A DNA stretch of 63,140 nt from Candidatus Saccharimonadia bacterium (GCA_041906885.1 JAYRII010000006.1:1-63140), one strand, 5' to 3'. Shown: positions 7,661 to 63,140, counted from the first letter of the stretch. Numbers and translations are program-made. Notes: a model not told the origin generated them from the sequence alone.

Positions 7661-10582
7661 ATGGGATATAATAGTAGGATGAAATCACTAAGTCGCAGGC
7701 GATTTGTAATCTTTGATGGACATGCCTTGTTGCATCGCGGTTATCATGCGATCCCATATCTGTCGGCCAGAGATGGTACACCGACCAATGGTGTTTATGG
7801 ATTCACCATGATGATGCTCAATGCTCTGCGTGAACTTAAGCCAGAGTATGCTGTCGTCGCCTGGGATATGTCCGGGCCGACATTTCGTCACGAAATGTAC
7901 CGGGAGTATAAGGGTACTCGCAAACAGATTGACGATAATCTCGCAGCCCAAATACCCGTTACCCAAGACCTGGTGGAAACTTTTGCCATTCCTCTTATTG
8001 GCGTCAAAGGCTATGAGGCAGATGATGTGATTGGTACGTTGGCGCATCGCTACAAAAATGAGTTTGAGATTGTGATTGTGACAGGCGACATGGATGAGCT
8101 GCAGCTGGTTGATGATCATGTCAAAATATATACTTTGCGCAAAGGTTTTTCGGACACTGTTATTTACGATCGGGCGGCAGTTCAAGCAAAATACGGCCTC
8201 TCGCCGGAAGAATTTATTACTTTTAAGGCACTCAAAGGGGATGCTAGTGATAATATTCCAGGTGTCAGTGGTATTGGCGATAAGACAGCAACTGACCTGG
8301 TATCGAAGTACAAAACGCTCGAAACCATTTATGATCAGCTGGAAGAAATTAAGCCGTCTGTAAAAGTGAAGCTCGAAGCTGGTCAAGAGCAAGCCAAGAT
8401 GAGCCTCGAATTATCTCGAATCGTAGTCGATGTGCCGATGAAATTCGACATTAAGGATGCTGTCTTGCACGAATATGATCGTGCTAAAGTGGTCGATTTG
8501 TTTCAAAAGCTCGGCTTTAAAAGTTTGCTCAATAAATTGCCGATTCAAAATAAGAGTACAAGTATTATCCAAAAATCTCTTTTTGATGATGGTGTGGCCA
8601 AAAATCCTTCAGTTTCACAACATGCTCATCTGGAGTCGGTTAATTATGTTTGTGTTGATAGTGAGCAAAAACTCGATCAACTTGCTCGCAGTCTGGCCAT
8701 GCAAAAGGTATTTGCGTTCGACACTGAGACGGATGGTATTGATGTGATCAATGCAAATCTTGTGGGAATGAGTTTTTCGTGGAGGGAAGGAGAGGCTTAT
8801 TATTTGCCGCTTGATCACAAAGATACCACCGGCTCTCGATCACAGGCTATTTCATCGTCAGATCCTCTAGTTCACACTCAACGTAGTAGCACTACGGCTC
8901 GTTTGCAAGCTTTAGACCTTCCTCGAACTAGCTCTGAGCTTGAGAGCCTCACTTCTGATGTAGAATCTCTTGCTTCAGGACAATTGCCACTTCAAACAGT
9001 CCTCGACAAACTAAAACCGATTCTAGAAAATCCAAAAATTGGCAAAGTTGGGCATAATATTAAGTTTGATTATCAAATTCTTCGTCGCTATAACATCAAG
9101 CTAGGTCCAATCGCATTTGATACCATGGTGGCGGCCTTTTTGATTAACCCTATCGTTAGAGCGCAAACTTTATCAAGCCTGGCTTTTTCTGAGCTTGGTA
9201 TTGAGATGATTGATATTGAGGAGTTAATCGGCCCAAAAGGTAAGAATCAGCGAACTTTTGATTCTGTGTCAATTGATCTGGCAACCAAATATGCAGCTGA
9301 GGACGCTGACATGGCTTGGCGTTTATATCAGTCGCTCGGAGCACAACTTAAACAAATTCCAGGAGTAAATGAAGTTGCAAAGCTAATGGAATGGCCACTC
9401 ATCCCGGTCCTAGCTGAAGTTGAAATCACCGGCGTCAAGCTTGATACTGACTTTTTGAAGACTTTTTCGCGTAAGATTAATTTGATGACAGCAAAGCTGG
9501 AAGAATCGATTTGGCAAGAGGCTGGTGAGCACTTCAATATCAACTCGACTGCGCAACTCAAAGTCATTCTGTTTGATAAATTAAAAATAGATGGCACAGC
9601 TCTAAAGAAAAATAAGACTGGTCTCTCGACTGCTGCTAAGGAGCTTGAAAAATTGCGTGGCACTCACCCAATAATTGATCATTTGTTTGAATATCGTGAA
9701 GTCACCAAGCTCAAGAGTACTTATGTCGACACTCTGCCACTACTTGTCAATCAGTCAACCGGCCGTATTCATACCAGCTACAATCAGACGATTGCTCAAA
9801 CCGGACGACTGTCGAGCACTAATCCAAACTTACAGAATATTCCAATACGCACAGCGCTCGGACGGGAGATTCGGCGGGCTTTTGTAGCTGATAAAGGAAA
9901 AGTTTTCATTAGTGCCGATTATTCGCAAATAGAATTACGACTTGCAGCTGCATTAGCTGGTGACAAGCCGATGATCGAAGCATTTATAGACGGCGCTGAT
10001 ATCCATGCCCTAACAGCTTCAGAAATGTATGGCGTTGATATAGGTGATGTCACAAAAGAGCAACGTTATGCTGCTAAAACGATCAATTTTGGCATTCTTT
10101 ATGGTATGAATCCTCATGGTCTTTCGGTTGCAACTGGTATGACGTTCGAGGAGGCCAAAGCATTTATTGATCGATATTTTGAGATTAGGCGAGGTATCGC
10201 TGAGTATATCGAGAAAATTAAGAAGTTAGCTCATAAGCTGGGCTATACTGAGACGATATTTGGTCGCAGGCGGCCGTGTCCGGAAGTTCACTCAAGTAAT
10301 TTTGTGGTCCGATCGGCGGCTGAACGGGCAGCTGTCAATATGCCCCTGCAGGGTACGGCAGCCGATATGATGAAGCTGGCGATGATCAATCTGTCGGGCA
10401 AATTACCACCAAATGCCAAGATGATATTGCAAATTCATGATGAACTGATTGTTGAGTGTTGCAAAAAAGACTCTAGCCAGGTTTCAAAAATATTAAAGAG
10501 CGTAATGGAAGGGGTTCACAAATTTGATGTACCGATTGAGGTTGGCGTGTCGATTGGAACTAATTGGGGAGATTTAGGCTAA
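7661..10582 (+). CDS. polA: DNA polymerase I (5'-3' exo, 3'-5' exo and polymerase domains)
   Basis: ExoI 'FAFDTETDG', ExoII 'GHNIKFDYQIL', ExoIII 'YAAEDADMAWRLY', and polymerase motifs 'DYSQIELR' and 'QIHDELIVE'. An alternative start is the ATG at 7679, 6 nt after a TATAAT at 7667-7672, which could mean a leaderless mRNA. Confidence 0.95.
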   Translation: MGYNSRMKSLSRRRFVIFDGHALLHRGYHAIPYLSARDGTPTNGVYGFTMMMLNALRELKPEYAVVAWDMSGPTFRHEMYREYKGTRKQIDDNLAAQIPVTQDLVETFAIPLIGVKGYEADDVIGTLAHRYKNEFEIVIVTGDMDELQLVDDHVKIYTLRKGFSDTVIYDRAAVQAKYGLSPEEFITFKALKGDASDNIPGVSGIGDKTATDLVSKYKTLETIYDQLEEIKPSVKVKLEAGQEQAKMSLELSRIVVDVPMKFDIKDAVLHEYDRAKVVDLFQKLGFKSLLNKLPIQNKSTSIIQKSLFDDGVAKNPSVSQHAHLESVNYVCVDSEQKLDQLARSLAMQKVFAFDTETDGIDVINANLVGMSFSWREGEAYYLPLDHKDTTGSRSQAISSSDPLVHTQRSSTTARLQALDLPRTSSELESLTSDVESLASGQLPLQTVLDKLKPILENPKIGKVGHNIKFDYQILRRYNIKLGPIAFDTMVAAFLINPIVRAQTLSSLAFSELGIEMIDIEELIGPKGKNQRTFDSVSIDLATKYAAEDADMAWRLYQSLGAQLKQIPGVNEVAKLMEWPLIPVLAEVEITGVKLDTDFLKTFSRKINLMTAKLEESIWQEAGEHFNINSTAQLKVILFDKLKIDGTALKKNKTGLSTAAKELEKLRGTHPIIDHLFEYREVTKLKSTYVDTLPLLVNQSTGRIHTSYNQTIAQTGRLSSTNPNLQNIPIRTALGREIRRAFVADKGKVFISADYSQIELRLAAALAGDKPMIEAFIDGADIHALTASEMYGVDIGDVTKEQRYAAKTINFGILYGMNPHGLSVATGMTFEEAKAFIDRYFEIRRGIAEYIEKIKKLAHKLGYTETIFGRRRPCPEVHSSNFVVRSAAERAAVNMPLQGTAADMMKLAMINLSGKLPPNAKMILQIHDELIVECCKKDSSQVSKILKSVMEGVHKFDVPIEVGVSIGTNWGDLG

Positions 10583-10765
10583 AAATACAAAACGGGCAGA
10601 TAGATGAGCCGCAAAAGGGGGAGTGCGACACATCTAACTGCCCGTCTGTCTAAAGTAAAGGTGCGTTCTAGAATGAACCGTACTATATAATACTATAAAT
10701 ATTGATTTAAGTCAATAGCCTTATCGTGCTAAAATATAGTAGCTTCGACCTGATATAATGAAACC

Positions 10766-13679: not shown

Positions 13680-13747
13680 GTCATTCTGAACTAGTTTCAG
13701 AATCTACTCTTTACGTAAAAAAGACCCTGAAACTAGTTCAGGGTGAC
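13680..13747. repeat. full-length 68-bp double-hairpin palindromic element (GTCAT...GTGAC)
   Basis: GTCATTCTGAACTAGTTTCAGAATCTAC-n15-GACCCTGAAACTAGTTCAGGGTGAC. A half-site lies upstream at 13645-13656. Confidence 0.8.
13717..13747 (-). terminator. rpsT terminator formed by the right arm of the repeat element
   Basis: On the minus strand, CCCTGAACTAGTTTCAGGG is followed by TCTTTTTT. Confidence 0.65.
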
Positions 13748-20079: not shown

Positions 20080-20149
20080 GTCATCCTGAACTTGATTCAG
20101 GATCTCTCGTGAAAAAGAGATCAGGGATTCTGAAAAATTTCAGAATGAC
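20080..20149. repeat. full-length 70-bp double-hairpin palindromic element
   Basis: GTCATCCTGAACTTGATTCAGGATCTC-(GATCTCT..AGAGATC hairpin)-GGGATTCTGAAAAATTTCAGAATGAC. Confidence 0.8.
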
Positions 20150-32341: not shown

Positions 32342-32559
32342 TTGGGCGCACGCATGCCACGCCAAGTGGCGTTATGAGCTACGATGCACATGTCATTACA
32401 CCTTTTATGTAAACTGCATTCGAGCTCATCGTTCATACTTTACTTGGTATAGACATTCATTGCACCTCATTTTTATAGTTTTTATCCTGAACTTTCCTCA
32501 GGCTAAAAAAGTTTAGTCTTGATAGAAAACTTACTACCTTTTTAAAAAGAAAGGAAAAT

Positions 32560-36252: not shown

Positions 36253-37443
36253 TTACTTAACATTAAACCTAAAAACAATCACATCACCGTCACGCACGAT
36301 GTAGTCGCGGCCTTCGAGGCGAACTTTGCCGGCCTCTTTGGCGCCAACCCAGCCGTTACTGCTTACAAAATCGTCATACGATACTACTTCAGCTTTAATA
36401 AAGCCCTTCTCAAAATCTCCATGAATGACGCCGGCCGCTTCGGGTGCGGTAGCGCCGATTGGCACGGTCCAGGCGCGAGATTCCTTTTCGCCGCTGGTGA
36501 AATAAGTCTGCAAGCCGAGCGTTTGATAGCCTAGGCGGATCAGGCTCTGCAGGCCCGATTCTTCTTGCCCGAGCTCGGCCAAAAGCTCGCGTCTGTCCGC
36601 CTCGCTCAAATCCATCAGTTGCTCTTCTGTCTTGGCAGATAAAAATATGGTTGGCAATCCTGGTACGAGTTCGGCTAATTGCTTCTTGTAAGCTTCGTCT
36701 GAGAGCTTAGCTTCGGCGATATTGAAAACATAGATAAATGGTTTGGCAGTGAGGAGCTGGAGAACTTTTATACTGTCTGAAATTTCTGGTATGTCATGCC
36801 GAACTTGTTTCGGTATCTCGATTTTTAAGTTTGTAGATCCTGAAACGAGTTCAGGATGACCATTTTTGTTGGGATGACCGTTATTTCTATTGGGCTGGCT
36901 GTAATGTTGGCTGACCAGTTCGCCTCGGTCTAAAAATTCTTTTATTTTTGCTAGCTCGGCAACTGTGGCGCTAGCTTTAGGGTTCGCCTTGCGTTCTTTT
37001 TCAAGCTTGTTTAAGCGATTTTCAACCGTAGCTAGATCTGCTAAACAGAGCTCAGTACGAATCGTCTCGATATCGCGCGCTGGGTCGATCGCATCATCGA
37101 CATGGACGACGTTATCATCCTCAAAGGCCCGTACGACTTGCACGATTGCAGCGCACTCACGGATGTGAGCGAGAAATTTATTGCCCAAGCCAGCTCCCTC
37201 AGACGCACCACGCACAATGCCGGCGATGTCAGTAAAGCTAACCGCTGCTGGGATAACTTTGGCACTTTTTGAAATATCAGCTAGTCTGGCGAGTCGCGCG
37301 TCTGGTACTTCAACCACGCCGACATTTGGCTCGATCGTGGCAAAAGGGTAGTTAGCGGCTAAAACTTTATTGCGGGTGAGGGCATTAAAAAGCGTCGACT
37401 TGCCGACATTAGGCAAGCCAACGATGCCGATAGATAAACTCAT
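36253..37443 (-). CDS. ychF: ribosome-binding ATPase YchF carrying an in-frame repeat-element insertion
   Basis: 'GIVGLPNVGKSTLFNAL' G1 motif and a C-terminal TGS-like 'RAWTVPIGATAPEAAGVIHGDFEKGFIKAEV'. It is 396 aa, against roughly 363 for typical YchF. Confidence 0.93.
   Translation of the reverse strand: MSLSIGIVGLPNVGKSTLFNALTRNKVLAANYPFATIEPNVGVVEVPDARLARLADISKSAKVIPAAVSFTDIAGIVRGASEGAGLGNKFLAHIRECAAIVQVVRAFEDDNVVHVDDAIDPARDIETIRTELCLADLATVENRLNKLEKERKANPKASATVAELAKIKEFLDRGELVSQHYSQPNRNNGHPNKNGHPELVSGSTNLKIEIPKQVRHDIPEISDSIKVLQLLTAKPFIYVFNIAEAKLSDEAYKKQLAELVPGLPTIFLSAKTEEQLMDLSEADRRELLAELGQEESGLQSLIRLGYQTLGLQTYFTSGEKESRAWTVPIGATAPEAAGVIHGDFEKGFIKAEVVSYDDFVSSNGWVGAKEAGKVRLEGRDYIVRDGDVIVFRFNVK
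36793..36860. repeat. full-length 68-bp double-hairpin element inside the ychF coding sequence
   Basis: Plus strand reads GTCATGCCGAACTTGTTTCGGTATC-n18-GATCCTGAAACGAGTTCAGGATGAC. An extra half-site lies at 36872-36880. Confidence 0.8.
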
Positions 37444-37514: not shown

Positions 37515-37766
37515 ATGAGTAAAACTATCAATATATCATTACCGGAGGAGCTAGTTAAGAAAATTGACCAGCTGGCCAAGAGCGAGTATGCCAGTCGGAG
37601 CGATTTTATTCGTGAGACGCTAGTGCGCCGCATCAAAGGCCAGCGAATTGTTGATGAATGGGGTGACGTGCTTGGTGAGTGGAACGAAGGCGTTGATTTG
37701 CGTGATGAACATGGCCGAGGCATGCCAGCTAAGCAACTGCTTAAAGCCATAGAAGAAATAAATTAA
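37515..37766 (+). CDS. ribbon-helix-helix (CopG/Arc/MetJ-type) antitoxin
   Basis: 'INISLPEELVKKIDQLAKSEYASRSDFIRETL' RHH signature. Confidence 0.8.
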   Translation: MSKTINISLPEELVKKIDQLAKSEYASRSDFIRETLVRRIKGQRIVDEWGDVLGEWNEGVDLRDEHGRGMPAKQLLKAIEEIN

Positions 37767-37772
37767 AGCCAG

Positions 37773-38018
37773 ATGAGTGACAAGGCAAAGAAGTTTCTAG
37801 CTAAGCTTAGTACTAAGGAGTTGGCCAGAGTTCGCGCGATCCTGAGCAAGATTGCTAACGATGATCGAGCAGGTCTTGACGTAAAGTCACTTAAAGGGAG
37901 GCCGGGCTATATCCGAATTCGAGTTGATCGGGTGAGAATAATATGCCTAAAAGTCGGTGGTGAGTACGAAGTGTTGCACATCACCAATCGAAACGAGAAG
38001 ACCTATAGGGACATGTAA
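37773..38018 (+). CDS. RelE/ParE-family toxin
   Basis: 81 aa with 'LKGRPGYIRIRVDRVRIICLKVGGEYEVLHITNRNEKTY', matching the ParE/RelE core pattern. Lies 6 nt after the antitoxin gene. Confidence 0.7.
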   Translation: MSDKAKKFLAKLSTKELARVRAILSKIANDDRAGLDVKSLKGRPGYIRIRVDRVRIICLKVGGEYEVLHITNRNEKTYRDM

Positions 38019-51439: not shown

Positions 51440-51518
51440 CTATTTGTAAGAAGTAATATATTTCTTACAAAAAACTGTTTGACTTCACGGGAGTCTTGTA
51501 ATAAAGTAAGCACAAGCG

Positions 51519-51654
51519 CTTTTATATACGCTTCTATACTCTCGTATAAATAACAAAACTCAAGGAGGAGGTAAGAAATATCATGCAATTAACTAAGAAA
51601 AAAGGTTTCACCCTGATTGAAATCGTTATCGTGCTGGCGATTGCGGCACTGATA
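51519..51654. repeat. left arm of a perfect 136-bp inverted repeat (pilin 5' UTR plus the first 24 codons)
   Basis: Reverse complement of 52445-52580 with no mismatch by eye. Confidence 0.85.
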
Positions 51655-51984
51655 CTTATCATTGTGTTCTTGGCGGTGTCAGGTGCGCAAAGGGAGAGAA
51701 GAAACGACGGACGTAAAAATATCGCTGGGCAAGTGGTTGCAGCTGTTCAAACATTTCAGGGAAATAATGGTGGCGCTTTACCAACAAATGCCTCACCATC
51801 TACCCAGTTGCAAAGTATTGTTATAAATAGAGATGTACCGGGAGTGGGTACTATGACAATTAACGTGTCCGCCCTACCGTCTTGTACGAATACAGGAAGT
51901 GCCATAGTAACATTTAATGGATCTACTACTGTTCGCGCATGTCTAGAAGGTAACGGAACCACTGGATACGACCTTACATTGTAG
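51583..51984 (+). CDS. type IV pilin (prepilin with a G|FTLIE cleavage/methylation site)
   Basis: 'MQLTKKKGFTLIEIVIVLAIAALIL'. Confidence 0.85.
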   Translation: MQLTKKKGFTLIEIVIVLAIAALILIIVFLAVSGAQRERRNDGRKNIAGQVVAAVQTFQGNNGGALPTNASPSTQLQSIVINRDVPGVGTMTINVSALPSCTNTGSAIVTFNGSTTVRACLEGNGTTGYDLTL

Positions 51985-52005
51985 GTTAGTGTGACAGTGA
52001 CTTCA

Positions 52006-52036
52006 TTAAAAAAGACCCTCAAAGGGTCTTTTTTAA
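52006..52036. terminator. bidirectional terminator between the convergent pilin genes
   Basis: AAAAAAGACCCT-caa-AGGGTCTTTTTT. Confidence 0.8.
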
Positions 52037-52051
52037 TGAAACTACCTTACT

Positions 52052-52516
52052 CTACGAAGCGTTATCGATACAAACTACCGTATTACCACTTTCCACCCAG
52101 TAGGTAATAGCTAGAGTGTTTCTACTTGGTGTGTGAGTTACTCCATTAAAGGTTTGTGCTGTGTTAGCTATGCCTCCAGCAGCAGTACATACGTAGGCGT
52201 CTCTATACCTAAATCTTTGGCCGGCGGTAGATGTGGCAGCTGCGTTATTGTAGTTCGGATCTTCACCTTGTCCATTTTGAATGCCTTGGGTGTAGTTACC
52301 TGGTAGATTAGCACCTAAAGGCAAGGTGCCTCCATTATTCGCGAAGTTTTCAAACTGCGCAGAAAGACGAGCTGCGGCATTTTTAGTCACATCGTCACGT
52401 CTAGAACGCTGTGCACCCCCGACAGCTAGGAATACTATCACTAATATCAGTGCCGCAATCGCCAGCACGATAACGATTTCAATCAGGGTGAAACCTTTTT
52501 TCTTAGTTAATTGCAT
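52052..52516 (-). CDS. type IV pilin, second variant, convergent with 51583
   Basis: The first 24 residues are encoded by DNA identical to the 51583 gene. The C-terminal domain is divergent. Confidence 0.85.
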   Translation of the reverse strand: MQLTKKKGFTLIEIVIVLAIAALILVIVFLAVGGAQRSRRDDVTKNAAARLSAQFENFANNGGTLPLGANLPGNYTQGIQNGQGEDPNYNNAAATSTAGQRFRYRDAYVCTAAGGIANTAQTFNGVTHTPSRNTLAITYWVESGNTVVCIDNAS

Positions 52517-52580
52517 GATATTTCTTACCTCCTCCTTGAGTTTTGTTATTTATACGAGAGTATAGAAGCGTATATAAAAG
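52445..52580. repeat. right arm of the perfect 136-bp inverted repeat
   Basis: See the left arm. A strong hairpin, GCGCCGC-n8-GCGGCGC (52584-52605), lies just outside it. Confidence 0.85.
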
Positions 52581-52669
52581 AAGTGCGCCGCTTTCAAAAG
52601 CGGCGCAGGGTACTCTAGGCAGTTTTGGCATACAAAAATGTGCTACAATTATAAGCGTAAGAATTTATT

Positions 52670-53290
52670 ATGATCAAAGCTACAAAACAAACCCGTCATT
52701 CTGGGTCACAAACCTGTCGTCCTGAACAGCGCTCGCTGACTCATCCCCGTCATTCTGGCTTGCGTGGCCGTCATTCTGAATTTATTTCAGAATCTACATT
52801 GAGTGCTAACAAGATCCTGAAACGAGTTCAGGATGACATTAGAAGTCAGGGTGATAACAAAGGCCGGGGTGGCGTTCAAATCCAAGGTAGCACTACCCAA
52901 AGGGGCTTCACGATCGTCGAGACGCTCTTTGTGCTCGCAATCGGCGGACTGATCTTGATAATGACATTCCTAGCGCTCGGCCAGACCAATCGCTCTAAGC
53001 GCGACGCCCAGCGCAAGACGGACTTTGCTAAGATCAATCAGAATATCGCCTCCTGGACAAATGAGCACCATGGTATATTGCCGACTGGTACTGCTGCAGT
53101 ACAGACTGCATCGGCACCAATACCCGATTCGCCAGATGGGAGTGGAAATCCATATGATGTGACCGCTACTTCCATCACTACTGCTTGCGGCGCTGGGTCA
53201 ACGAACAATATCTACTACGAGCGGACAAACGATAGATCATACAAAATAAAAATCTGTTTAGAATCAGGAGAATTCATTGAAAACCACTAA
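52670..53290 (+). CDS. pilin-like protein (G|FTIVE site); true start uncertain
   Basis: 'QRGFTIVETLFVLAIGGLILIMTF'. The only in-frame ATG lies about 75 codons upstream, and the ORF there reads through repeat elements. In-frame TTG codons also exist. Confidence 0.6.
   Translation: MIKATKQTRHSGSQTCRPEQRSLTHPRHSGLRGRHSEFISESTLSANKILKRVQDDIRSQGDNKGRGGVQIQGSTTQRGFTIVETLFVLAIGGLILIMTFLALGQTNRSKRDAQRKTDFAKINQNIASWTNEHHGILPTGTAAVQTASAPIPDSPDGSGNPYDVTATSITTACGAGSTNNIYYERTNDRSYKIKICLESGEFIENH
52693..52837. repeat. cluster of three half-sites plus one full 68-bp element (52770-52837)
   Basis: GTCATTCTGAATTTATTTCAGAATCTAC-ATTGAGTGCTAACAA-GATCCTGAAACGAGTTCAGGATGAC. Confidence 0.8.
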
Positions 53291-53927
53291 CAAAAATGGC
53301 TTTACTTTAATTGAAATAATAATAGTTTTGGCGATTGGTGCTTTGATAGTTCTGATTGCATTTATTGGTGTACCAATGGCCAAGCGTATGATACGTGACA
53401 ATCAGCGCAAGAGTGATCTAGAGAACACGGCAATTGCCTTTAAAGCTTTCCAAAGTGCTCACAATGGCTGCTTACCGACCTGGCTTGATAATGGAACTAT
53501 AGGGCCGCCCATGTATCCTCCGAGGCGTCCTGAATTGCCGCCTTTTCCTGCTGATTGTGAAAATAGTTATCTATTTGGTGCTGCCATGGCCGGCATAAGT
53601 CCAATGCTTGACGCAAGTAAGCTTATTGCTGGTGGATATTATCATCCAAATACGTATGGCATTGATCCGCTAGCACGTCAGAGATACCAATGGCACGAAA
53701 TTGGCCCAGATTATGGTATGGGTATGAAACCAGCAACCATGCACCCTAATTGTACGGATGCAGATTCTAAACCCACGGAGAGTACGCCTGCACGAATAAA
53801 ATATTACCGTGAAGTCGATTATAGAACAGTAACTCTTGGTATTGATCGATCGCAGATTCCTCACAGATTTGCACTCGGTATTTGCCTTGAGGCAGGGGAA
53901 GAGTTTATCCAGGAGTTTGACTTCTAG
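53277..53927 (+). CDS. type IV pilin-like protein (TTG start)
   Basis: 'KNGFTLIEIIIVLAIGALIVLIAF'. AGGAG lies 7 nt upstream of the TTG. Confidence 0.8.
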   Translation: MKTTNKNGFTLIEIIIVLAIGALIVLIAFIGVPMAKRMIRDNQRKSDLENTAIAFKAFQSAHNGCLPTWLDNGTIGPPMYPPRRPELPPFPADCENSYLFGAAMAGISPMLDASKLIAGGYYHPNTYGIDPLARQRYQWHEIGPDYGMGMKPATMHPNCTDADSKPTESTPARIKYYREVDYRTVTLGIDRSQIPHRFALGICLEAGEEFIQEFDF

Positions 53928-53975
53928 AGCTCGCTGGTACTAGTCCTTCAGCTTGGCATTTTGAACAGCAATCCC

Positions 53976-54160
53976 GTCATCCTGAACTTGATTCAGAATC
54001 TACGTTGAGTGCCAACAGATCCTTCGACTTCGCTCAGGATGACAATTGTCCTGACCCGCTGACCACTTCTGTCATTCTGATCCGGCGGTTGCCGGAGAAG
54101 AATCTACTCCCGCTACGAAGCAGATCCTGAATAGTGAGCCAGCGAGCACTGCTTAAGGAC
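53976..54160. repeat. one full 68-bp element (53976-54043) plus a second variant element
   Basis: GTCATCCTGAACTTGATTCAGAATCTAC-GTTGAGTGCCAACA-GATCCTTCGACTTCGCTCAGGATGAC, followed by GTCATTCTGATCCGGCGGTTGCCGGAGAAGAATCTAC... Confidence 0.75.
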
Positions 54161-54167
54161 GATTATC

Positions 54168-54196
54168 TTGTATGTTCGTAAATAGTTCGGTATAAT
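54168..54196 (+). promoter_or_regulatory. promoter TTGTAT-17-TATAAT for the coiled-coil gene
   Basis: TTGTAT at 54168-54173 and TATAAT at 54191-54196. Confidence 0.55.
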
Positions 54197-54239
54197 TGAA
54201 TTACTGCAACGGTTATAATGGATGAAAGGGAAGAAGCTT

Positions 54240-54899
54240 ATGGCTCTAACAAAAGAAGACATTTCACAGATCAAAAACCTGATCGACACCATGGATATAT
54301 CACGTATACGCATGGCTATGCGCACAGATATCGAGGAGGTGATGGAGGAGAAGGTTGGTAAATTTGAGATCAAGATTGATCAAAAATTCGCTGATGCTGA
54401 AGTCAAGATCGACCAAAAGTTAGCCGATTTCGAGACGAAGATGTACGAAAAGTTCGCTATCGCTGAGGCTAGTGTAGATGAAAAGTTCGCTATCGCTGAG
54501 GCTAGTGTAGATGAAAAGTTCGCTATCGCTGAGGCTAGTGTAGATGAAAAGTTTGATAATTTCGCTGCCATGGTGCAGAGGCAGTTTGTGCACATCGATA
54601 CTAGGTTTGATAAGCTTGAAGCTAGGTTTGATAAGCTTGAGGCCAGAATGGACAGGCTTGAGGATAGGATGGATAAAATTGAGATCAAGGTTGGTCATCT
54701 AGAAGGGAGAATAGCAAGCATGGAATCAAAGATTTTGGCCATAGAAGCTGAGCTTGAGGAGATTAAAGAAGAGCTCAAGCAGATTAGTACTAGGTCTAAA
54801 GAAGACGCCGATTATCAAGGCTATGAAATCATCAAGCTGGGCCGCCGGGTGACGCAGCTAGAAGATGAGGTGGGTGAGCTTAAGAAAGCTATTAAGTAA
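54240..54899 (+). CDS. coiled-coil repeat protein of unknown function
   Basis: Heptad-like 'D.KF...' repeats, 3x 'EKFAIAEASVD', and 'TRFDKLEARFDKLEARMDRLEDRMDKIE'. Start taken at M7 of the tracked ORF. Confidence 0.6.
   Translation: MALTKEDISQIKNLIDTMDISRIRMAMRTDIEEVMEEKVGKFEIKIDQKFADAEVKIDQKLADFETKMYEKFAIAEASVDEKFAIAEASVDEKFAIAEASVDEKFDNFAAMVQRQFVHIDTRFDKLEARFDKLEARMDRLEDRMDKIEIKVGHLEGRIASMESKILAIEAELEEIKEELKQISTRSKEDADYQGYEIIKLGRRVTQLEDEVGELKKAIK
54447..54545 (+). repeat. perfect 33-bp x3 in-frame tandem repeat, plus a partial fourth unit
   Basis: GAAAAGTTCGCTATCGCTGAGGCTAGTGTAGAT repeated three times. Confidence 0.9.
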
Positions 54900-54923
54900 T
54901 CATAGGTCTCCCCGGCACATAGA

Positions 54924-55231
54924 GATTCTTCTCCGGCAGCTGGCGGAGAAGAATGACAGAGGTGGGCAGCAGTTCAGATTGACAGCGCGGAGCTGGCCTG
55001 CTTGTTACCTTGGGTGTAAAAGCTGTCATCTTGAGCGTAGTCGAAAGATCTCTCGCCACGGTCATCCTGAACAGCGAGCTTGTGAGCGCGTTTCAGGATC
55101 TCGCCGGCACGGTTGTCATCCTAAAGCGTAGTCGAAAGATCTGCTGGCACAAGATATAGATCCTGAATCAAGTTCAGGATGACAGGAGCAGAGTTAGATG
55201 CGGAATGACAGAGTAAGTGGTTCAGGACGAC
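54924..55231. repeat. dense cluster of at least 7 hairpin arms of the GTCATYCT.../...RGATGAC family
   Basis: Examples are GTCATCTTGAGCGTAGTCGAAAGATCTC (55025), GTCATCCTGAACAGCGAGCTTGTGAGCGCGTTTCAGGATCTC (55061), GTCATCCTAAAGCGTAGTCGAAAGATCTGC (55115) and GATCCTGAATCAAGTTCAGGATGAC (55159). Confidence 0.8.
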
Positions 55232-55359
55232 AACGCGGAGCCGCCTTTTACGAGAAAGCACTGCTAGGCCGAGCTAAAATCGCCAAATGGTTGCCTAAAA
55301 CACCGTTTGCCGGGATAATATTAAGCATAAGAGTATTATTTGGTAGTTATTAAAGCAAC

Positions 55360-56160
55360 ATGGATAGAGCGCAGCTAGCATTTATACTAGAAATCATCTT
55401 TGGCGGTTTCGGTTTGCTCTTTGGCAGCTTCATCAACGCTTGGGTCTGGCGCGTCAAGAACGGCAAGAAGGTTAGTCGAGGCCGCTCAATGTGCCCACAT
55501 TGTAAATGTCAGCTAAAGTCTCGTGATTTAGTGCCAGTATTAAGTTTCATCTGGCTAAGAGGTCGTTGCCGATGTTGCAATAAGCCAATCTCTTGGCAAT
55601 ATCCGATCGTCGAGCTCATCACGGCATTTACTTTCATTTGCCTGGCAGCTTATTTCTTACCCTTGGCAAACCTGCAACTCTTCTCGCTCGCGATCTGGCT
55701 GGTGGTGGCGGTATTGGTGATCGCCGCAGCTGTCTACGACTACAAATGGATGATCTTACCAGATCGCTTCATGCTGCCCGCGATTGGCTTAGGCCTGGTC
55801 TACGTCGTCGGCTTGGCGCTCATGACTGGCCAAGTTACAGTTATCTGGCGGCTGGTAGCGGCTCTGATATTTGCTGGCTTTTTCTTCTCACTGTGGTATT
55901 TCTCGGGCGGTAAATGGATGGGCGACGGCGACATTCGGATCGGCTTCTTGATGGGATTGATGCTCTCACCAAGCCAGCTGATAGTGGCTATCTTCTTGGC
56001 CTTCAATATCGCCGCAGTCGTGTCGCTGGTGCTGATTGCAACCAAGCTGCGCACGCGCAAAGACCTCATCCCATTTGGCCCCTTCCTGATCCTGGGTATG
56101 TTTCTAGGCCTATTCTTGGGCGAACGACTGGTGGCTTGGTACACGAATTTCTTGGTATAG
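55360..56160 (+). CDS. pilD: prepilin peptidase (A24 family, PilD)
   Basis: 'CPHCKCQL...LRGRCRCCNKPISWQYPIVE' zinc motif, multiple TM segments, and 'GGKWMGDGDIRIG'. Confidence 0.9.
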   Translation: MDRAQLAFILEIIFGGFGLLFGSFINAWVWRVKNGKKVSRGRSMCPHCKCQLKSRDLVPVLSFIWLRGRCRCCNKPISWQYPIVELITAFTFICLAAYFLPLANLQLFSLAIWLVVAVLVIAAAVYDYKWMILPDRFMLPAIGLGLVYVVGLALMTGQVTVIWRLVAALIFAGFFFSLWYFSGGKWMGDGDIRIGFLMGLMLSPSQLIVAIFLAFNIAAVVSLVLIATKLRTRKDLIPFGPFLILGMFLGLFLGERLVAWYTNFLV

Positions 56161-60413: not shown

Positions 60414-60492
60414 ACCTTTTAGGATAAGCGTTTTATTTGCAGGGTGCAAGCTCCTCTTTACTTTTGAACAGTTCCTCCTTCATCCTTAGCTA

Positions 60493-60610
60493 GATTCTTC
60501 ACTCCGTTTGAGAATGACAACATACCAACCGTCATCCTCAAGCAACAGTCGAAGGATCTATTCCCCCCAAACACCCATCATGTCATCCTGAACTCGTTTC
60601 AGGATCTGTC
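60493..60610. repeat. three hairpin arms of the same repeat family
   Basis: GATTCTTCACTCCGTTTGAGAATGAC, GTCATCCTCAAGCAACAGTCGAAGGATCT and GTCATCCTGAACTCGTTTCAGGATCT. Confidence 0.75.
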
Positions 60611-60643
60611 TATAATTAGAAAATAATTTTTTTATCTTTCTCT

Positions 60644-60790
60644 TTTACTACCTTTTAGCGTAAAAGGTAGTACCAAAAGCATGAGCCTCTAGTTCGCAAA
60701 CAAGTGGTTGCTAAATAAGTCATTCTAATTACTAAGCGAGAACTCACTCGCCTTTGGCTCGCTCAAACAGCTCGCTTAGGTTCTGGCTTT
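60644..60790 (+). repeat. copy 1 of a direct repeat of about 145 bp flanking mnmG
   Basis: TTTACTACCTTTTAGCGTAAAAGGTAGTACCAAAAGCATGAGCC...GCGAGAACTCACTCGCC...CTCAAACAGCTCGC. Highly similar to 62999-63140. Confidence 0.75.
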
Positions 60791-61082: not shown

Positions 61083-62927
61083 ATGGCGAAGTTAAGTCAA
61101 TATGACGTTGTGGTAGTTGGGGCTGGTCACGCCGGCTGTGAAGCTGCTGTAGCAGCTGCCAAACTAGGTGCGAAAATTGCTCTAATCACCACCAATTTAG
61201 CAAAAGTGGCAGCTTTGCCATGCAACCCGTCGGTTGGCGGGCCAGGCAAGGGCCACATTGTGCGTGAAATTGACGCTTTGGGCGGCATTATGGCTCGCGT
61301 GGTGGATAAAAGCGCTATTCAGATCAAAGAGCTCAATACCTCTAAAGGCCCAGCAGTCAGGGCCTATCGAGCTCAGCTCGATCGTAGCTGCTACAATCAG
61401 AATATGGTTGAGATTTTGCAGTCCACAGACGGACTGGAATTGATCGAGGATGGGGTCAGCGGTGTGGAGGCAAAGGACGGCCAGATAGTTGGAGTGGTGA
61501 CGGTGGCTAGAGGGCTAATTAGAGCTAAAACGGTTATAGTCTGCTCAGGGACATTTTTGAATGGTGAGATTATTGTTGGGCCAAAAATCATCAAAAAGGG
61601 TGGCCGAATTGACGAGGCTAGTGTAGCCGGTCTAACCGAATCGCTGCGAAAGCTGGGGTTAAAGTCAGGTCGTCTCAAGACTGGCACGCCACCACGCATC
61701 AGGCGGAGTAGTATTGACTATTCTAGGCTGGAGGAGGCTCCAGGCATGGGCGGCAAGATTAGTTTTTCGCACCCAGACAGAGAATTAATGCCGCTTGGCG
61801 AGCAGGTATTGTGCTGGCTAACCTATACCAATCACACAACCCATCAGTTGATCTTAGATAATTATCATCTATCGGGTAATATCTCAGGCATGATTACTGA
61901 GTCTGGACCGAGAAGCTGTCCGAGTATTGATCTGAAAGTAAAGAATTTTCCAGATCGTGAGCGGCACCCCATATTTATTGAGCCAGTCGGTACCGAAGAC
62001 GGTCCTGATGGTGAGTTAATGTACCTGCAAGGCTGCTCGACAGCTTTTGCACCGGACATGCAAGAGAAAATTTTTCGATCGATTGAGGGCTTAGAAAAAG
62101 CCGAATTTATCGAGTATGGCTACGCCGTTCGTTATGACTTTTTCCCGCCCCATCAACTGACTCGGAGCTTGAGTACAAAAGTTGTACAAGGTCTTTATCT
62201 TGCAGGTCAAATGAATGGCACAACTGGCTACGAAGAGGCGGCCGCGCAGGGCCTAATGGCTGGTATTAACGCTGCTAGATTTGTCAAAAAGTTAGAGCCT
62301 TTTGTGCTTGATAGGACAGAGAGCTATATTGGTGTTTTGATCGAAGATCTAGTGACTAAAACTCACGCTGAACCATATCGGATGTTTACCTCGAGAGCTG
62401 AATACAGGCTCTTACTCAGAAATGACAATGCCAGTAGCCGCTTGGCGCGAAAGGGATATGAGATTGGTTTGGTAGACGGGGCAACATTAGATAGAGTAGA
62501 AGCAAGACAACAGTCAATAAGGCGCGAGATTAGTGAGCTTAAGCGATACAAGATTATACATGACGGTAAAAGCACGACAGCCTATCAATTCTTGAAGCGC
62601 CCGGAGGTGAATCACCAGATACTAAAAGCCAAATACGGCATTGCTCTGCCTGAAGATGTCGCTAGCAGCGTAGAAATAGAGGTTAAGTACGAGGGTTATT
62701 TTGAGCGCCAGAAACATGATGCGGAGAAGCTACACCAATGGCGCACCTTTGTTCTCTCTGATGAGATTGATTATGATGCGATCACCGGGATACGCAATGA
62801 GGCTCGAGCCAGACTGAAGGAAACCAAGCCAGAATCTATTGCCCAGGCCATGCAGATCCAAGGCATCACTCCGGCTGATCTGAACATACTGATGGTCTCG
62901 GCTCACGCGCAGGACAAGGCCTCTTAA
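61083..62927 (+). CDS. mnmG: tRNA uridine 5-carboxymethylaminomethyl modification enzyme MnmG (GidA)
   Basis: 'YDVVVVGAGHAGCEAA' FAD motif and 'YAVRYDFFPPHQL...GLYLAGQMNGTTGYEEAAAQG'. Confidence 0.95.
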   Translation: MAKLSQYDVVVVGAGHAGCEAAVAAAKLGAKIALITTNLAKVAALPCNPSVGGPGKGHIVREIDALGGIMARVVDKSAIQIKELNTSKGPAVRAYRAQLDRSCYNQNMVEILQSTDGLELIEDGVSGVEAKDGQIVGVVTVARGLIRAKTVIVCSGTFLNGEIIVGPKIIKKGGRIDEASVAGLTESLRKLGLKSGRLKTGTPPRIRRSSIDYSRLEEAPGMGGKISFSHPDRELMPLGEQVLCWLTYTNHTTHQLILDNYHLSGNISGMITESGPRSCPSIDLKVKNFPDRERHPIFIEPVGTEDGPDGELMYLQGCSTAFAPDMQEKIFRSIEGLEKAEFIEYGYAVRYDFFPPHQLTRSLSTKVVQGLYLAGQMNGTTGYEEAAAQGLMAGINAARFVKKLEPFVLDRTESYIGVLIEDLVTKTHAEPYRMFTSRAEYRLLLRNDNASSRLARKGYEIGLVDGATLDRVEARQQSIRREISELKRYKIIHDGKSTTAYQFLKRPEVNHQILKAKYGIALPEDVASSVEIEVKYEGYFERQKHDAEKLHQWRTFVLSDEIDYDAITGIRNEARARLKETKPESIAQAMQIQGITPADLNILMVSAHAQDKAS

Positions 62928-62998
62928 ATAGGACTTCTACTTTACTTAAAAGTAAGCAAAAACTCCCCCTACTTTTGGGTTACGGCCAAAAATCCTTC

Positions 62999-63140
62999 TT
63001 TCACTACCTTTTAACGTAAAAGGTAGTACCAAAAGCATGAGCCTTTATGTCGCAAGCAAGTGGGTCTTATGAACTGTTATATCACTACCAGGCGAGAACT
63101 CACTCGCCTAAAAGCTCACTCAAACAGCTCGCCTGGTTTA
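62999..63140 (+). repeat. copy 2 of the direct repeat of about 145 bp (runs to the window edge)
   Basis: TTCACTACCTTTTAACGTAAAAGGTAGTACCAAAAGCATGAGCC...GCGAGAACTCACTCGCC...CTCAAACAGCTCGCC. Confidence 0.75.

Follow-up and report, generated by a model that had tools for sequence, protein, structure and literature searches.

A 63,140-nt stretch of DNA from Candidatus Saccharimonadia bacterium (GCA_041906885.1, JAYRII010000006.1), referred to here as the window, carries a 68-nt palindromic element in frame inside the gene ychF. Positions are those of the whole stretch, and its minus strand is the gene sense of ychF. Two CGTC-tagged REP hairpins make up the element as an inverted dimer, of the same kind as the SRM/NTS repeats; this assignment is well supported. 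In the explanation that we consider highly likely, a dimer of this type, equivalent to the ends of a nuclease gene cassette without the gene, landed in frame in ychF and is carried as a loop of the protein. The in-frame presence of the element, its absence from most orthologues, its predicted location in a disordered loop and the architecture of the cassette in related genomes are all well supported.

The insert in YchF and its orthologues

The 396-aa open reading frame (ORF) matched TIGR00092, the YchF equivalog model, with 424.6 bits (cutoff 279.2), in two stretches separated by a break at residue 180. Read in gene sense, ychF runs straight through GGTCATCCTGAACTCGTTTCAGGATCTAC-AAACTTAAAAATCGA-GATACCGAAACAAGTTCGGCATGAC, which corresponds to window positions 36793-36860. 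The frame stays open and all YchF motifs are kept, including those of the G-domain and TGS, in agreement with the original prediction of a full 68-bp double hairpin within an intact gene. The same prediction had called ychF essential; this is not established, and ychF is dispensable in E. coli.

At least 24 contigs, assembled from many sequencing runs, contain this same ychF gene, and 10/10 of the copies compared are nucleotide-identical. A chimeric assembly across the insert is therefore excluded for practical purposes, even though repeats can produce chimeric joins in metagenome assemblies and every recovered copy comes from one strain. Together with the open frame, the conserved motifs, a TIGR00092 score far above the cutoff and the homologous or analogous inserts in four other independently assembled genomes, this makes it barely credible that the insert is an assembly artefact or that the window gene is a decaying pseudogene.

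Insert-free relatives of the window protein measure 356-360 aa. Loop length, taken as the residues between the LDRGEL and LLTAKPF anchors, was determined in the 120 closest YchF proteins, all Saccharibacteria-like. The loop comprised 21-24 residues in 114 of them, 29 in one and 38-72 in five; about 115 of the 120 lack the insert, while five carry inserts at the loop. The window protein (P0001) has a loop of 59 residues, 38 of them extra, which enlarges the figure of about 30 residues given originally. A same-length homologous segment was looked for in the insert-free close relatives and was not seen. Furthermore, an exhaustive search of 1.8 billion representatives provided 150 diverse YchF proteins, nearly all aligning as two pieces with a break at residues 175-180; among the long proteins of this set, none had a repeat-type insert at the loop.

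Residues 2-172 and 223-395 of the window protein align to residues 2-173 and 189-363 of 1JAL, the solved H. influenzae structure. The insert falls between 1JAL residues 173 and 189, at the point where the polypeptide leaves the helical domain and re-enters the G domain. In the AlphaFold2 model, residues 185-215 have pLDDT <50 and no secondary structure, and the helices 157-180 and the strand 236-241 beside the insert are modelled confidently. The insert is accordingly predicted to form a disordered surface loop between well-modelled domains.

The 68-nt element, its copies and its reading frame

Each hairpin consists of an unpaired (C/T/G)GTC tag, an 8-9-bp stem starting with AT (ATCCTGAA), a 3-5-nt loop and the complementary stem, followed by C-T-A. 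A pattern of the 25-nt hairpin matched nine times in the window against zero expected (none in 100 shuffles), and a repeat finder grouped 36793-36860, 13680-13747, 52770-52837 and 53976-54043 into one 68-nt family. The copies that had been proposed outside ychF, including that at 20080-20149, were recovered by the pattern and the repeat finder, the 20080 copy being 70 nt long. Three of these (13680, 20080 and 53976) are intergenic, as had been stated, while the fourth (52770) lies inside the 5' part of a pilin ORF. Neither the Rfam gathering scan nor the tRNA scan of the window returned a match. The coordinates of these features are collected in Table 1.

The dimer in ychF folds as single-stranded DNA (ssDNA) better than shuffled sequences, with z of -3.2 and -4.5. 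Its hairpin 1 (25 nt) is identical to 52813-52837(-) and 60582-60606(+); with the next T, the identity extends to the 26 nt shared with 60582-60607 that had been noted before, so the nucleotide similarity to copies outside the gene holds. In hairpin 2 the stem shows paired changes, from T:A to C:G. The extra half-site described as adjoining the element was located as GGTCATCCC.

Translation of the consensus revealed that two of the three frames through the dimer are closed, in either orientation, by TGA in the TCCTGA stems; therefore, roughly one insertion in three leaves the frame open. The sole stop-free frame per orientation reads xHPELVSGS...ILKxVQDD, and it is this frame in which the ychF copy is read (GHPELVSGS...IPKQVRHD). 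Across the loci compared, 13/157 strict hairpins lie inside long open frames. Pfam scans around three of these hairpins, from other phyla, identified real genes, namely ligA (HHH_2/BRCT) in Nomurabacterium, gltB (GXGXG) in Treponema and hsdM (N6_Mtase) in Lacinutrix. The Pfam matches of ligA and hsdM are lengthened by ~10-12 residues where they cross the hairpin.

Extra tags follow a 20-nt period in L081 intergenic DNA and spacings of 18, 21 and 33 nt inside ORFs, the latter all multiples of three, which fits the frame filter. Trains of GTCATCC tags outside the element ends were observed at L081 12218-12400, in the L081 ychF (10560-10600) and at window 52695-52780. Across phyla, GTCATYC half-site trains outside the element ends were not enriched (22% versus 17% background). 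As a general feature, such trains were set aside, striking as they are in the Saccharibacteria loci.

The type IV pilin-like ORF 52670-53290 is a second in-frame case in the window. Three tags (RHSG, CRPE, RHSG) and the 68-nt dimer are read in one frame of this ORF, upstream of its G|FTIVE cleavage motif. In-frame starts before the motif exist only at 52670, 52760 and 52799, and a cleavable leader must therefore include repeat-derived residues. More broadly, hairpins gather around four pilin-like genes with MQLTKKKGFTLIE-type N-termini (window 51500-55300 and 60440-60610), similar to the published clustering of Neisseria NTS near surface-protein genes. Between ORF 54222-54899 and ORF 55360-56160, at 54900-55260, at least six hairpin variants with short loops, long loops or other stems were found, and the 88-aa ORF 54865-55131, which contains GHPEQRACERVSGS, looks like a spurious translation of repeats.

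Table 1. Coordinates of the ychF insert, related hairpins and the cassette locus
Feature	Position	Strand	Remarks
ychF, intact, carrying the insert	36253-37443	-	396 aa; TIGR00092 match; aligns to 1JAL
Whole extra segment relative to insert-free orthologues, SQPNRNNGHPNKNGHPELVSGSTNLKIEIPKQVRHDIP	36790-36903	-	114 nt, 38 aa; alignments, AlphaFold pLDDT
Inverted dimer of two CGTC-REP/SRM hairpins, 18-nt spacer	36793-36860	.	68 nt; folding beats shuffles
Hairpin 1, GTCATCCTGAACTCGTTTCAGGATC, forward on coding strand, consensus-perfect	36836-36860	-	encodes (G)HPELVSGS
Hairpin 2, GTCATGCCGAACTTGTTTCGGTATC, forward on template strand, diverged stem	36793-36817	+	encodes IPKQVRHD
Extra tag half-site GGTCATCCC, 18 nt upstream of hairpin 1	36871-36879	-	encodes GHP
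Intergenic 68-nt dimer between convergent ORFs	13680-13747	.	fold z -5.7
Intergenic 70-nt dimer	20080-20149	.	hairpin pattern
68-nt dimer in 5' (leader-peptide) part of pilin-like ORF 52670-53290, in its open frame	52770-52837	.	
Intergenic 68-nt dimer	53976-54043	.	nearly the same spacer as the 52770 copy
Cluster of at least six SRM variants, including long-loop hairpin 55061-55100	54924-55183	.	
Single hairpin	55159-55183		part of the 54924-55183 cluster
Solo hairpin identical to ychF hairpin 1	60582-60606	+	
rpsR-efp spacer, cassette locus	window 32342-32559; L081 12162-12952; L086 12808-13374; L217; L218		

The YchF loop and a nuclease cassette in related Saccharibacteria

An insert homologous to that of the window was identified in P0002, the YchF of relative L081. 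The two inserts share the frame, the non-repeat lead-in (SQPNRNNGH versus GQSNSNDGH) and the derived CCGAAACAAGTTC core of hairpin 2. In P0002, hairpin 1 is of a longer-loop subtype that recurs at window 55061-55100 and L086 12867-12906, and two further tags stand upstream with 21-nt spacing. In P0082 (L085), a dimer GTCATCCTGAACTTGATTCAGGATC...GGGATGAC begins directly after LLS, its first hairpin identical to the window copy at 20080. P0089 (L083) carries a variant with a GAGCG stem, GTCATTCTGAGCGGGAGCGAAGAATC...CTCAGGATGAC, which begins after HYNS, a few codons further along the loop, and P0030 (L084) has a decayed copy like it in the same loop. At least three separate acquisitions in the YchF loop were counted, represented by window/P0002, P0082 and P0089/P0030. 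Both the homologous insert of P0002 and the different copies in the same loop of other Saccharibacteria had escaped the original prediction.

In a bootstrapped YchF tree built without the loop, P0001 clusters with the insert-free P0004, P0005 and P0006 (90% bootstrap), to the exclusion of P0002; this topology requires that the insert was lost at least once or was transferred by recombination. The relative L082 has an insert-free ychF and no hairpins in 21 kb. P0004, P0005 (L086 10511-10600) and P0006 form an insert-free sister clade with a strongly remodelled loop, LNEGHLPPRDTVEKLDPEIRAP, of canonical length. This exact canonical length gives no support to the idea that their loop (GHLPPRD...) is an excision scar. 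As a cause of the hotspot, microhomology of the hairpin stem with the native 'IPE' codons (ATTCCTGAA) was also considered, but the junctions lie elsewhere. In another YchF representative, P0265 (372 aa), a repeat-like peptide ILRFTSFAQDDK was observed in a different loop, after the G4 region, which suggests a hairpin insertion at a second YchF site in another lineage. The long internal self-duplications of the YchF entries P0033, P0243 and P0258 are probably assembly artefacts.

In four relatives (L081, L086, L217 and L218), the same two hairpins enclose a 98-aa GIY-YIG ORF (PF01541, E 7e-20). The cassette comprises a forward hairpin, ~22 nt, the ORF from ATG to ILK-stop and an inverted hairpin, in total 353-356 nt, and its 3' hairpin encodes the last residues of the ORF, with the stop codon in the hairpin loop. 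The arrangement typical of SRM, with repeats on both sides of a small single-domain GIY-YIG gene, is thus found in these four relatives and not in the window. The catalytic residues Y6/Y17/E64 of N. meningitidis SsnA (PMC11893778) are spaced identically to Y9/Y20/E67 of the ORF. The 98-aa protein resembles Ssn by its PF01541 match, its length and this spacing, which lend indirect support to a putative membership in cd10448 and a putative cleavage of ssDNA; the repeat-gene-repeat order around a ~94-98-aa single-domain GIY-YIG protein is likewise common to both systems. The protein family comprises >5,000 clusters and is common in Patescibacteria.

The cassette is invariably located between rpsR and efp in the four relatives. 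In L082 and L084, these two genes abut within a few bases and the site is empty. In the window, the spacer is 218 nt long and homologous to the rpsR-proximal part of that of L081, without the cassette; a decayed hairpin-like sequence, TTATCCTGAACTTTCCTCAGGCT, was observed in it. The ychF-type dimer corresponds to the two ends of the cassette in the same outward-tag arrangement, without the gene. It is a gene-less counterpart of the cassette and not a proven deletion derivative, a restriction made because its spacer has no similarity to the cassette interior.

Among the neighbours of ychF, an RHH-domain gene and an 81-aa partner (window 37515-38018) form a toxin-antitoxin-like pair that adjoins it in the window; the pair is also present in L081 and L086 and absent in L082. 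Other repeats of the window include six tandem 33-nt units at 54348-54558, encoding 11-aa repeats (EKFAIAEASVD) in the coiled-coil-like ORF 54222-54899. A 67-nt direct repeat, 91% identical, lies at 60641-60707 and 62997-63063 on either side of ORF 61083-62927 and contains an internal palindrome, CTACCTTTT..AAAAGGTAG.

Competing explanations and comparison with known systems

Under the favoured explanation, a copy of the dimer would have landed in the linker that joins the helical domain of YchF to its G domain. The gene would stay intact only where an insertion is read in the xHPELVSGS...ILKxVQDD frame, and selection would retain only insertions in loops tolerating extra residues, the outcome being a 38-aa disordered surface loop carried as neutral or nearly neutral baggage. 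The insert would date back far enough for the P0002 lineage to share it in diverged form, and at least one later loss or recombinational move would have followed; different copies were acquired in this loop by other Saccharibacteria. We infer a role of an Ssn-type GIY-YIG ssDNA nuclease in spreading or maintaining the repeats, and no function for the insert itself.

Several observations weigh against this explanation. A tblastn search for a GIY-YIG gene in the 63-kb window returned nothing, and the cassette is missing at the window's rpsR-efp site. In the four genomes that have it, the cassette occupies one fixed locus, which suggests vertical inheritance more than mobility. The activity known for Ssn is the cutting of ssDNA, not transposition (PMC11893778). 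The spacers of the dimers, being dissimilar to the cassette interior, lend no support to an origin of the dimer by direct deletion from the cassette. The published degenerate SRM pattern, HGTCWYN(0-2)YYVSBRHN(0-5)WNVSBRGN(0-2)RNCYNB, had 0 matches in the window, with NTS controls positive, because the stems of the window hairpins are too AT-rich. Finally, the hairpin 1 stems of the window and P0002 are 100% conserved although the proteins differ by ~20%, and this conservation, with the paired changes of hairpin 2, could reflect constraint or gene conversion rather than neutrality.

The absence of a GIY-YIG gene from the window, the single fixed locus of the cassette and the restriction of the known activity of Ssn to cutting ssDNA favour a spread or maintenance of the repeats by other means, either a RAYT/IS200-type Y1 transposase or plain exchange between copies through recombination and gene conversion, with the nuclease gene merely happening to be flanked by hairpins or using them as targets. 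A GIY-YIG ORF was within reach at only 4/120 hairpin loci from other phyla, which also suits this alternative, although this test says little either way, and the 2013 survey reported no dedicated transposase for CGTC REPs (PMC3733652). The tag is nevertheless of the CGTC type and not the GTAG of RAYTs, and the hairpins bracket the GIY-YIG ORF exactly, encoding its last residues and stop codon. The published association is also strong, with 71% of ssn homologues flanked by SRM and 81% of SRM-rich genomes containing ssn (PMC11893778), and the 21 kb of L082 contain no SRM and no cassette. We regard spread by other means as somewhat unlikely.

A function of the insert was also considered. It could be kept as a nuclease recognition site in ychF with an effect on recombination or on the entry of foreign ychF DNA, as a hairpin of the mRNA or DNA that adjusts expression, or as a functional new protein loop. 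Sister lineages manage without the insert, the peptide is predicted to be disordered and, apart from the hairpin stems, shows little conservation between P0001 and P0002, and the inserts of other lineages differ in sequence and length. The perfect stems of hairpin 1 and the paired stem changes of hairpin 2, in an insert common to two lineages whose YchF differs by ~20%, would fit a function, but gene conversion with other copies can also conserve stems. Insertion recurs in the same loop, the Saccharibacteria loci examined here are rich in type IV pilus genes, and Neisseria NTS repeats modulate transformation (PMC11893778), all of which would agree with a functional role; Ssn, on the other hand, has no action on RNA or double-stranded DNA (PMC11893778). 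Taken jointly, these functional possibilities appear quite improbable.

A bolder proposal, which we consider unlikely, is that the YchF linker loop is a true hotspot where dimers are inserted and excised by the Ssn-type GIY-YIG ssDNA nuclease. If so, the recurrent gain, loss and replacement of subtypes in this one loop across Saccharibacteria would provide the first natural evidence for SRM-ssn-SRM units as an active, gene-poor mobile system, and the in-frame protein-coding palindromes of the Rickettsia palindromic element (RPE) type found in many phyla would be by-products of that system.

The element represents a kind of repeat already known: the super-family, its dimers, intragenic copies, Rickettsia members and nuclease have all been published. 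The original prediction had overlooked that both the family and its GIY-YIG nuclease partner (Ssn) were described before. What is new is the host lineage, as no paper on such a case in Saccharibacteria or other genomes of the Candidate Phyla Radiation (CPR) was found in an incomplete search of the literature, in line with the novelty claimed earlier; searches on RPE with GIY-YIG and on in-frame repeats of Saccharibacteria, of the same limited extent, also returned nothing. Also new are the AT-rich CCTGAA-stem variant that the published SRM pattern misses, the recurrent use of a single loop of YchF and the explicit correspondence between the dimer ends and a GIY-YIG cassette of CPR. Palindromes that encode protein, of which the Rickettsia examples are the best known, are thereby extended to the reduced genomes of Saccharibacteria (CPR) and tied to the recently described Ssn nuclease-and-repeat system. 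The SRM pattern misses at least one widespread AT-rich variant, and current counts of the system are therefore likely underestimates. With its filled and empty sites, the YchF loop forms a natural series in which the movement of such repeats can be studied. For annotation, the results explain the peptides GHPELVSGS, ILKQVQDD and VILSGSEES in database proteins and flag spurious small ORFs consisting only of such repeats.

Compared with known systems, the dimers differ from classical miniature inverted-repeat transposable elements, which derive from insertion sequences with DDE transposases, in the absence of a target-site duplication: the longest flanking direct repeat was 0-2 nt at all ten dimers and cassettes. 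The REPIN-RAYT system is similar in having dispersed inverted doublets, a single-copy enzyme gene at a fixed locus with the same hairpins, and no target-site duplications. However, it combines a GTAG tag with a Y1 (HUH) transposase, whereas the tag here is of the CGTC type and the flanked gene encodes a GIY-YIG nuclease with a putative role in mobilisation; no RAYT search elsewhere in the genome was made.

The comparison with RPEs proposed originally holds for the phenomenon, and the link goes beyond mere analogy. A full member of a palindromic repeat family stands in frame in a conserved gene, is absent from about 115 of 120 orthologues and, being placed in a predicted disordered loop, is compatible with the fold, as RPEs are tolerated as extra surface peptides. 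The window element belongs to a different phylum and has a different stem sequence, RPE-1 is a longer (about 150 bp) and different element, and an NCBIfam scan at E <= 1 for a named RPE family returned only GTPase-type models for YchF and nothing for the insert peptide. The relation to RPEs holds only at the super-family level, through RPE-4 and RPE-6 of Rickettsia conorii, which belong to the CGTC REP super-family together with Neisseria dRS3 (PMC3733652).

Small GIY-YIG Ssn nucleases bind SRM as ssDNA and cut a few nt upstream (Chenal 2025, PMC11893778). The Neisseria NTS has the layout CGTCAT-TCCCGCG-MAV-GCGGGAATC-YRG, and the NTS-ssnA-NTS arrangement resembles an insertion sequence (PMC11893778). 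According to the same paper, NTS are rarely intragenic (2%); in-frame copies, gene-less dimers, RPEs and CPR are not discussed there. The window hairpins fall outside the published pattern, but they share with SRM/NTS the GTCAT tag, the palindrome and the C after it. GTC before the stem and C after it are found in every copy, and these positions are critical for cleavage and binding by Ssn (PMC11893778).

In tag, stem and dimeric arrangement, the hairpins agree with the CGTC-tagged REPs, which are mostly inverted dimers and occur within genes in several species (Di Nocera 2013, PMC3733652). That survey covered 5 phyla, mostly Alphaproteobacteria, with Saccharibacteria and CPR outside it. The lineage studied here carries an AT-richer variant with CCTGAA stems, and among the matches listed in an exact-pattern scan of reference genomes it was also observed in CPR, Bacteroidota, Sphingomonadaceae, Melainabacteria, Treponema, Elusimicrobiota, Rickettsiales and others. 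Further differences are the tail, C-T-A or C-T-C, of which only the first C agrees with the 3-nt consensus CCA, and the coexistence of variants with 12-18-nt loops beside those of 3-5 nt, by the stem definition used (4-5 nt in the published units; PMC3733652). In all copies the tag before AT is CGTC, TGTC or GGTC with GTC invariant, and TGTC or CCTC tags are found in many published units (PMC3733652). All stems start with AT and have 8-9 bp with <=1 mismatch, like the complementary A-T at the first two positions of the CGTC REP stem (PMC3733652). Inverted dimers with short spacers number five in the window and 58 across the loci compared, and in-frame copies were found in ychF, ligA, gltB and hsdM. 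Similarly, published intragenic CGTC REP units or dimers encode 20-30 aa in frame, sometimes at the same site in orthologous genes, and different REPs occupy about the same site in Xanthomonas recB (PMC3733652).

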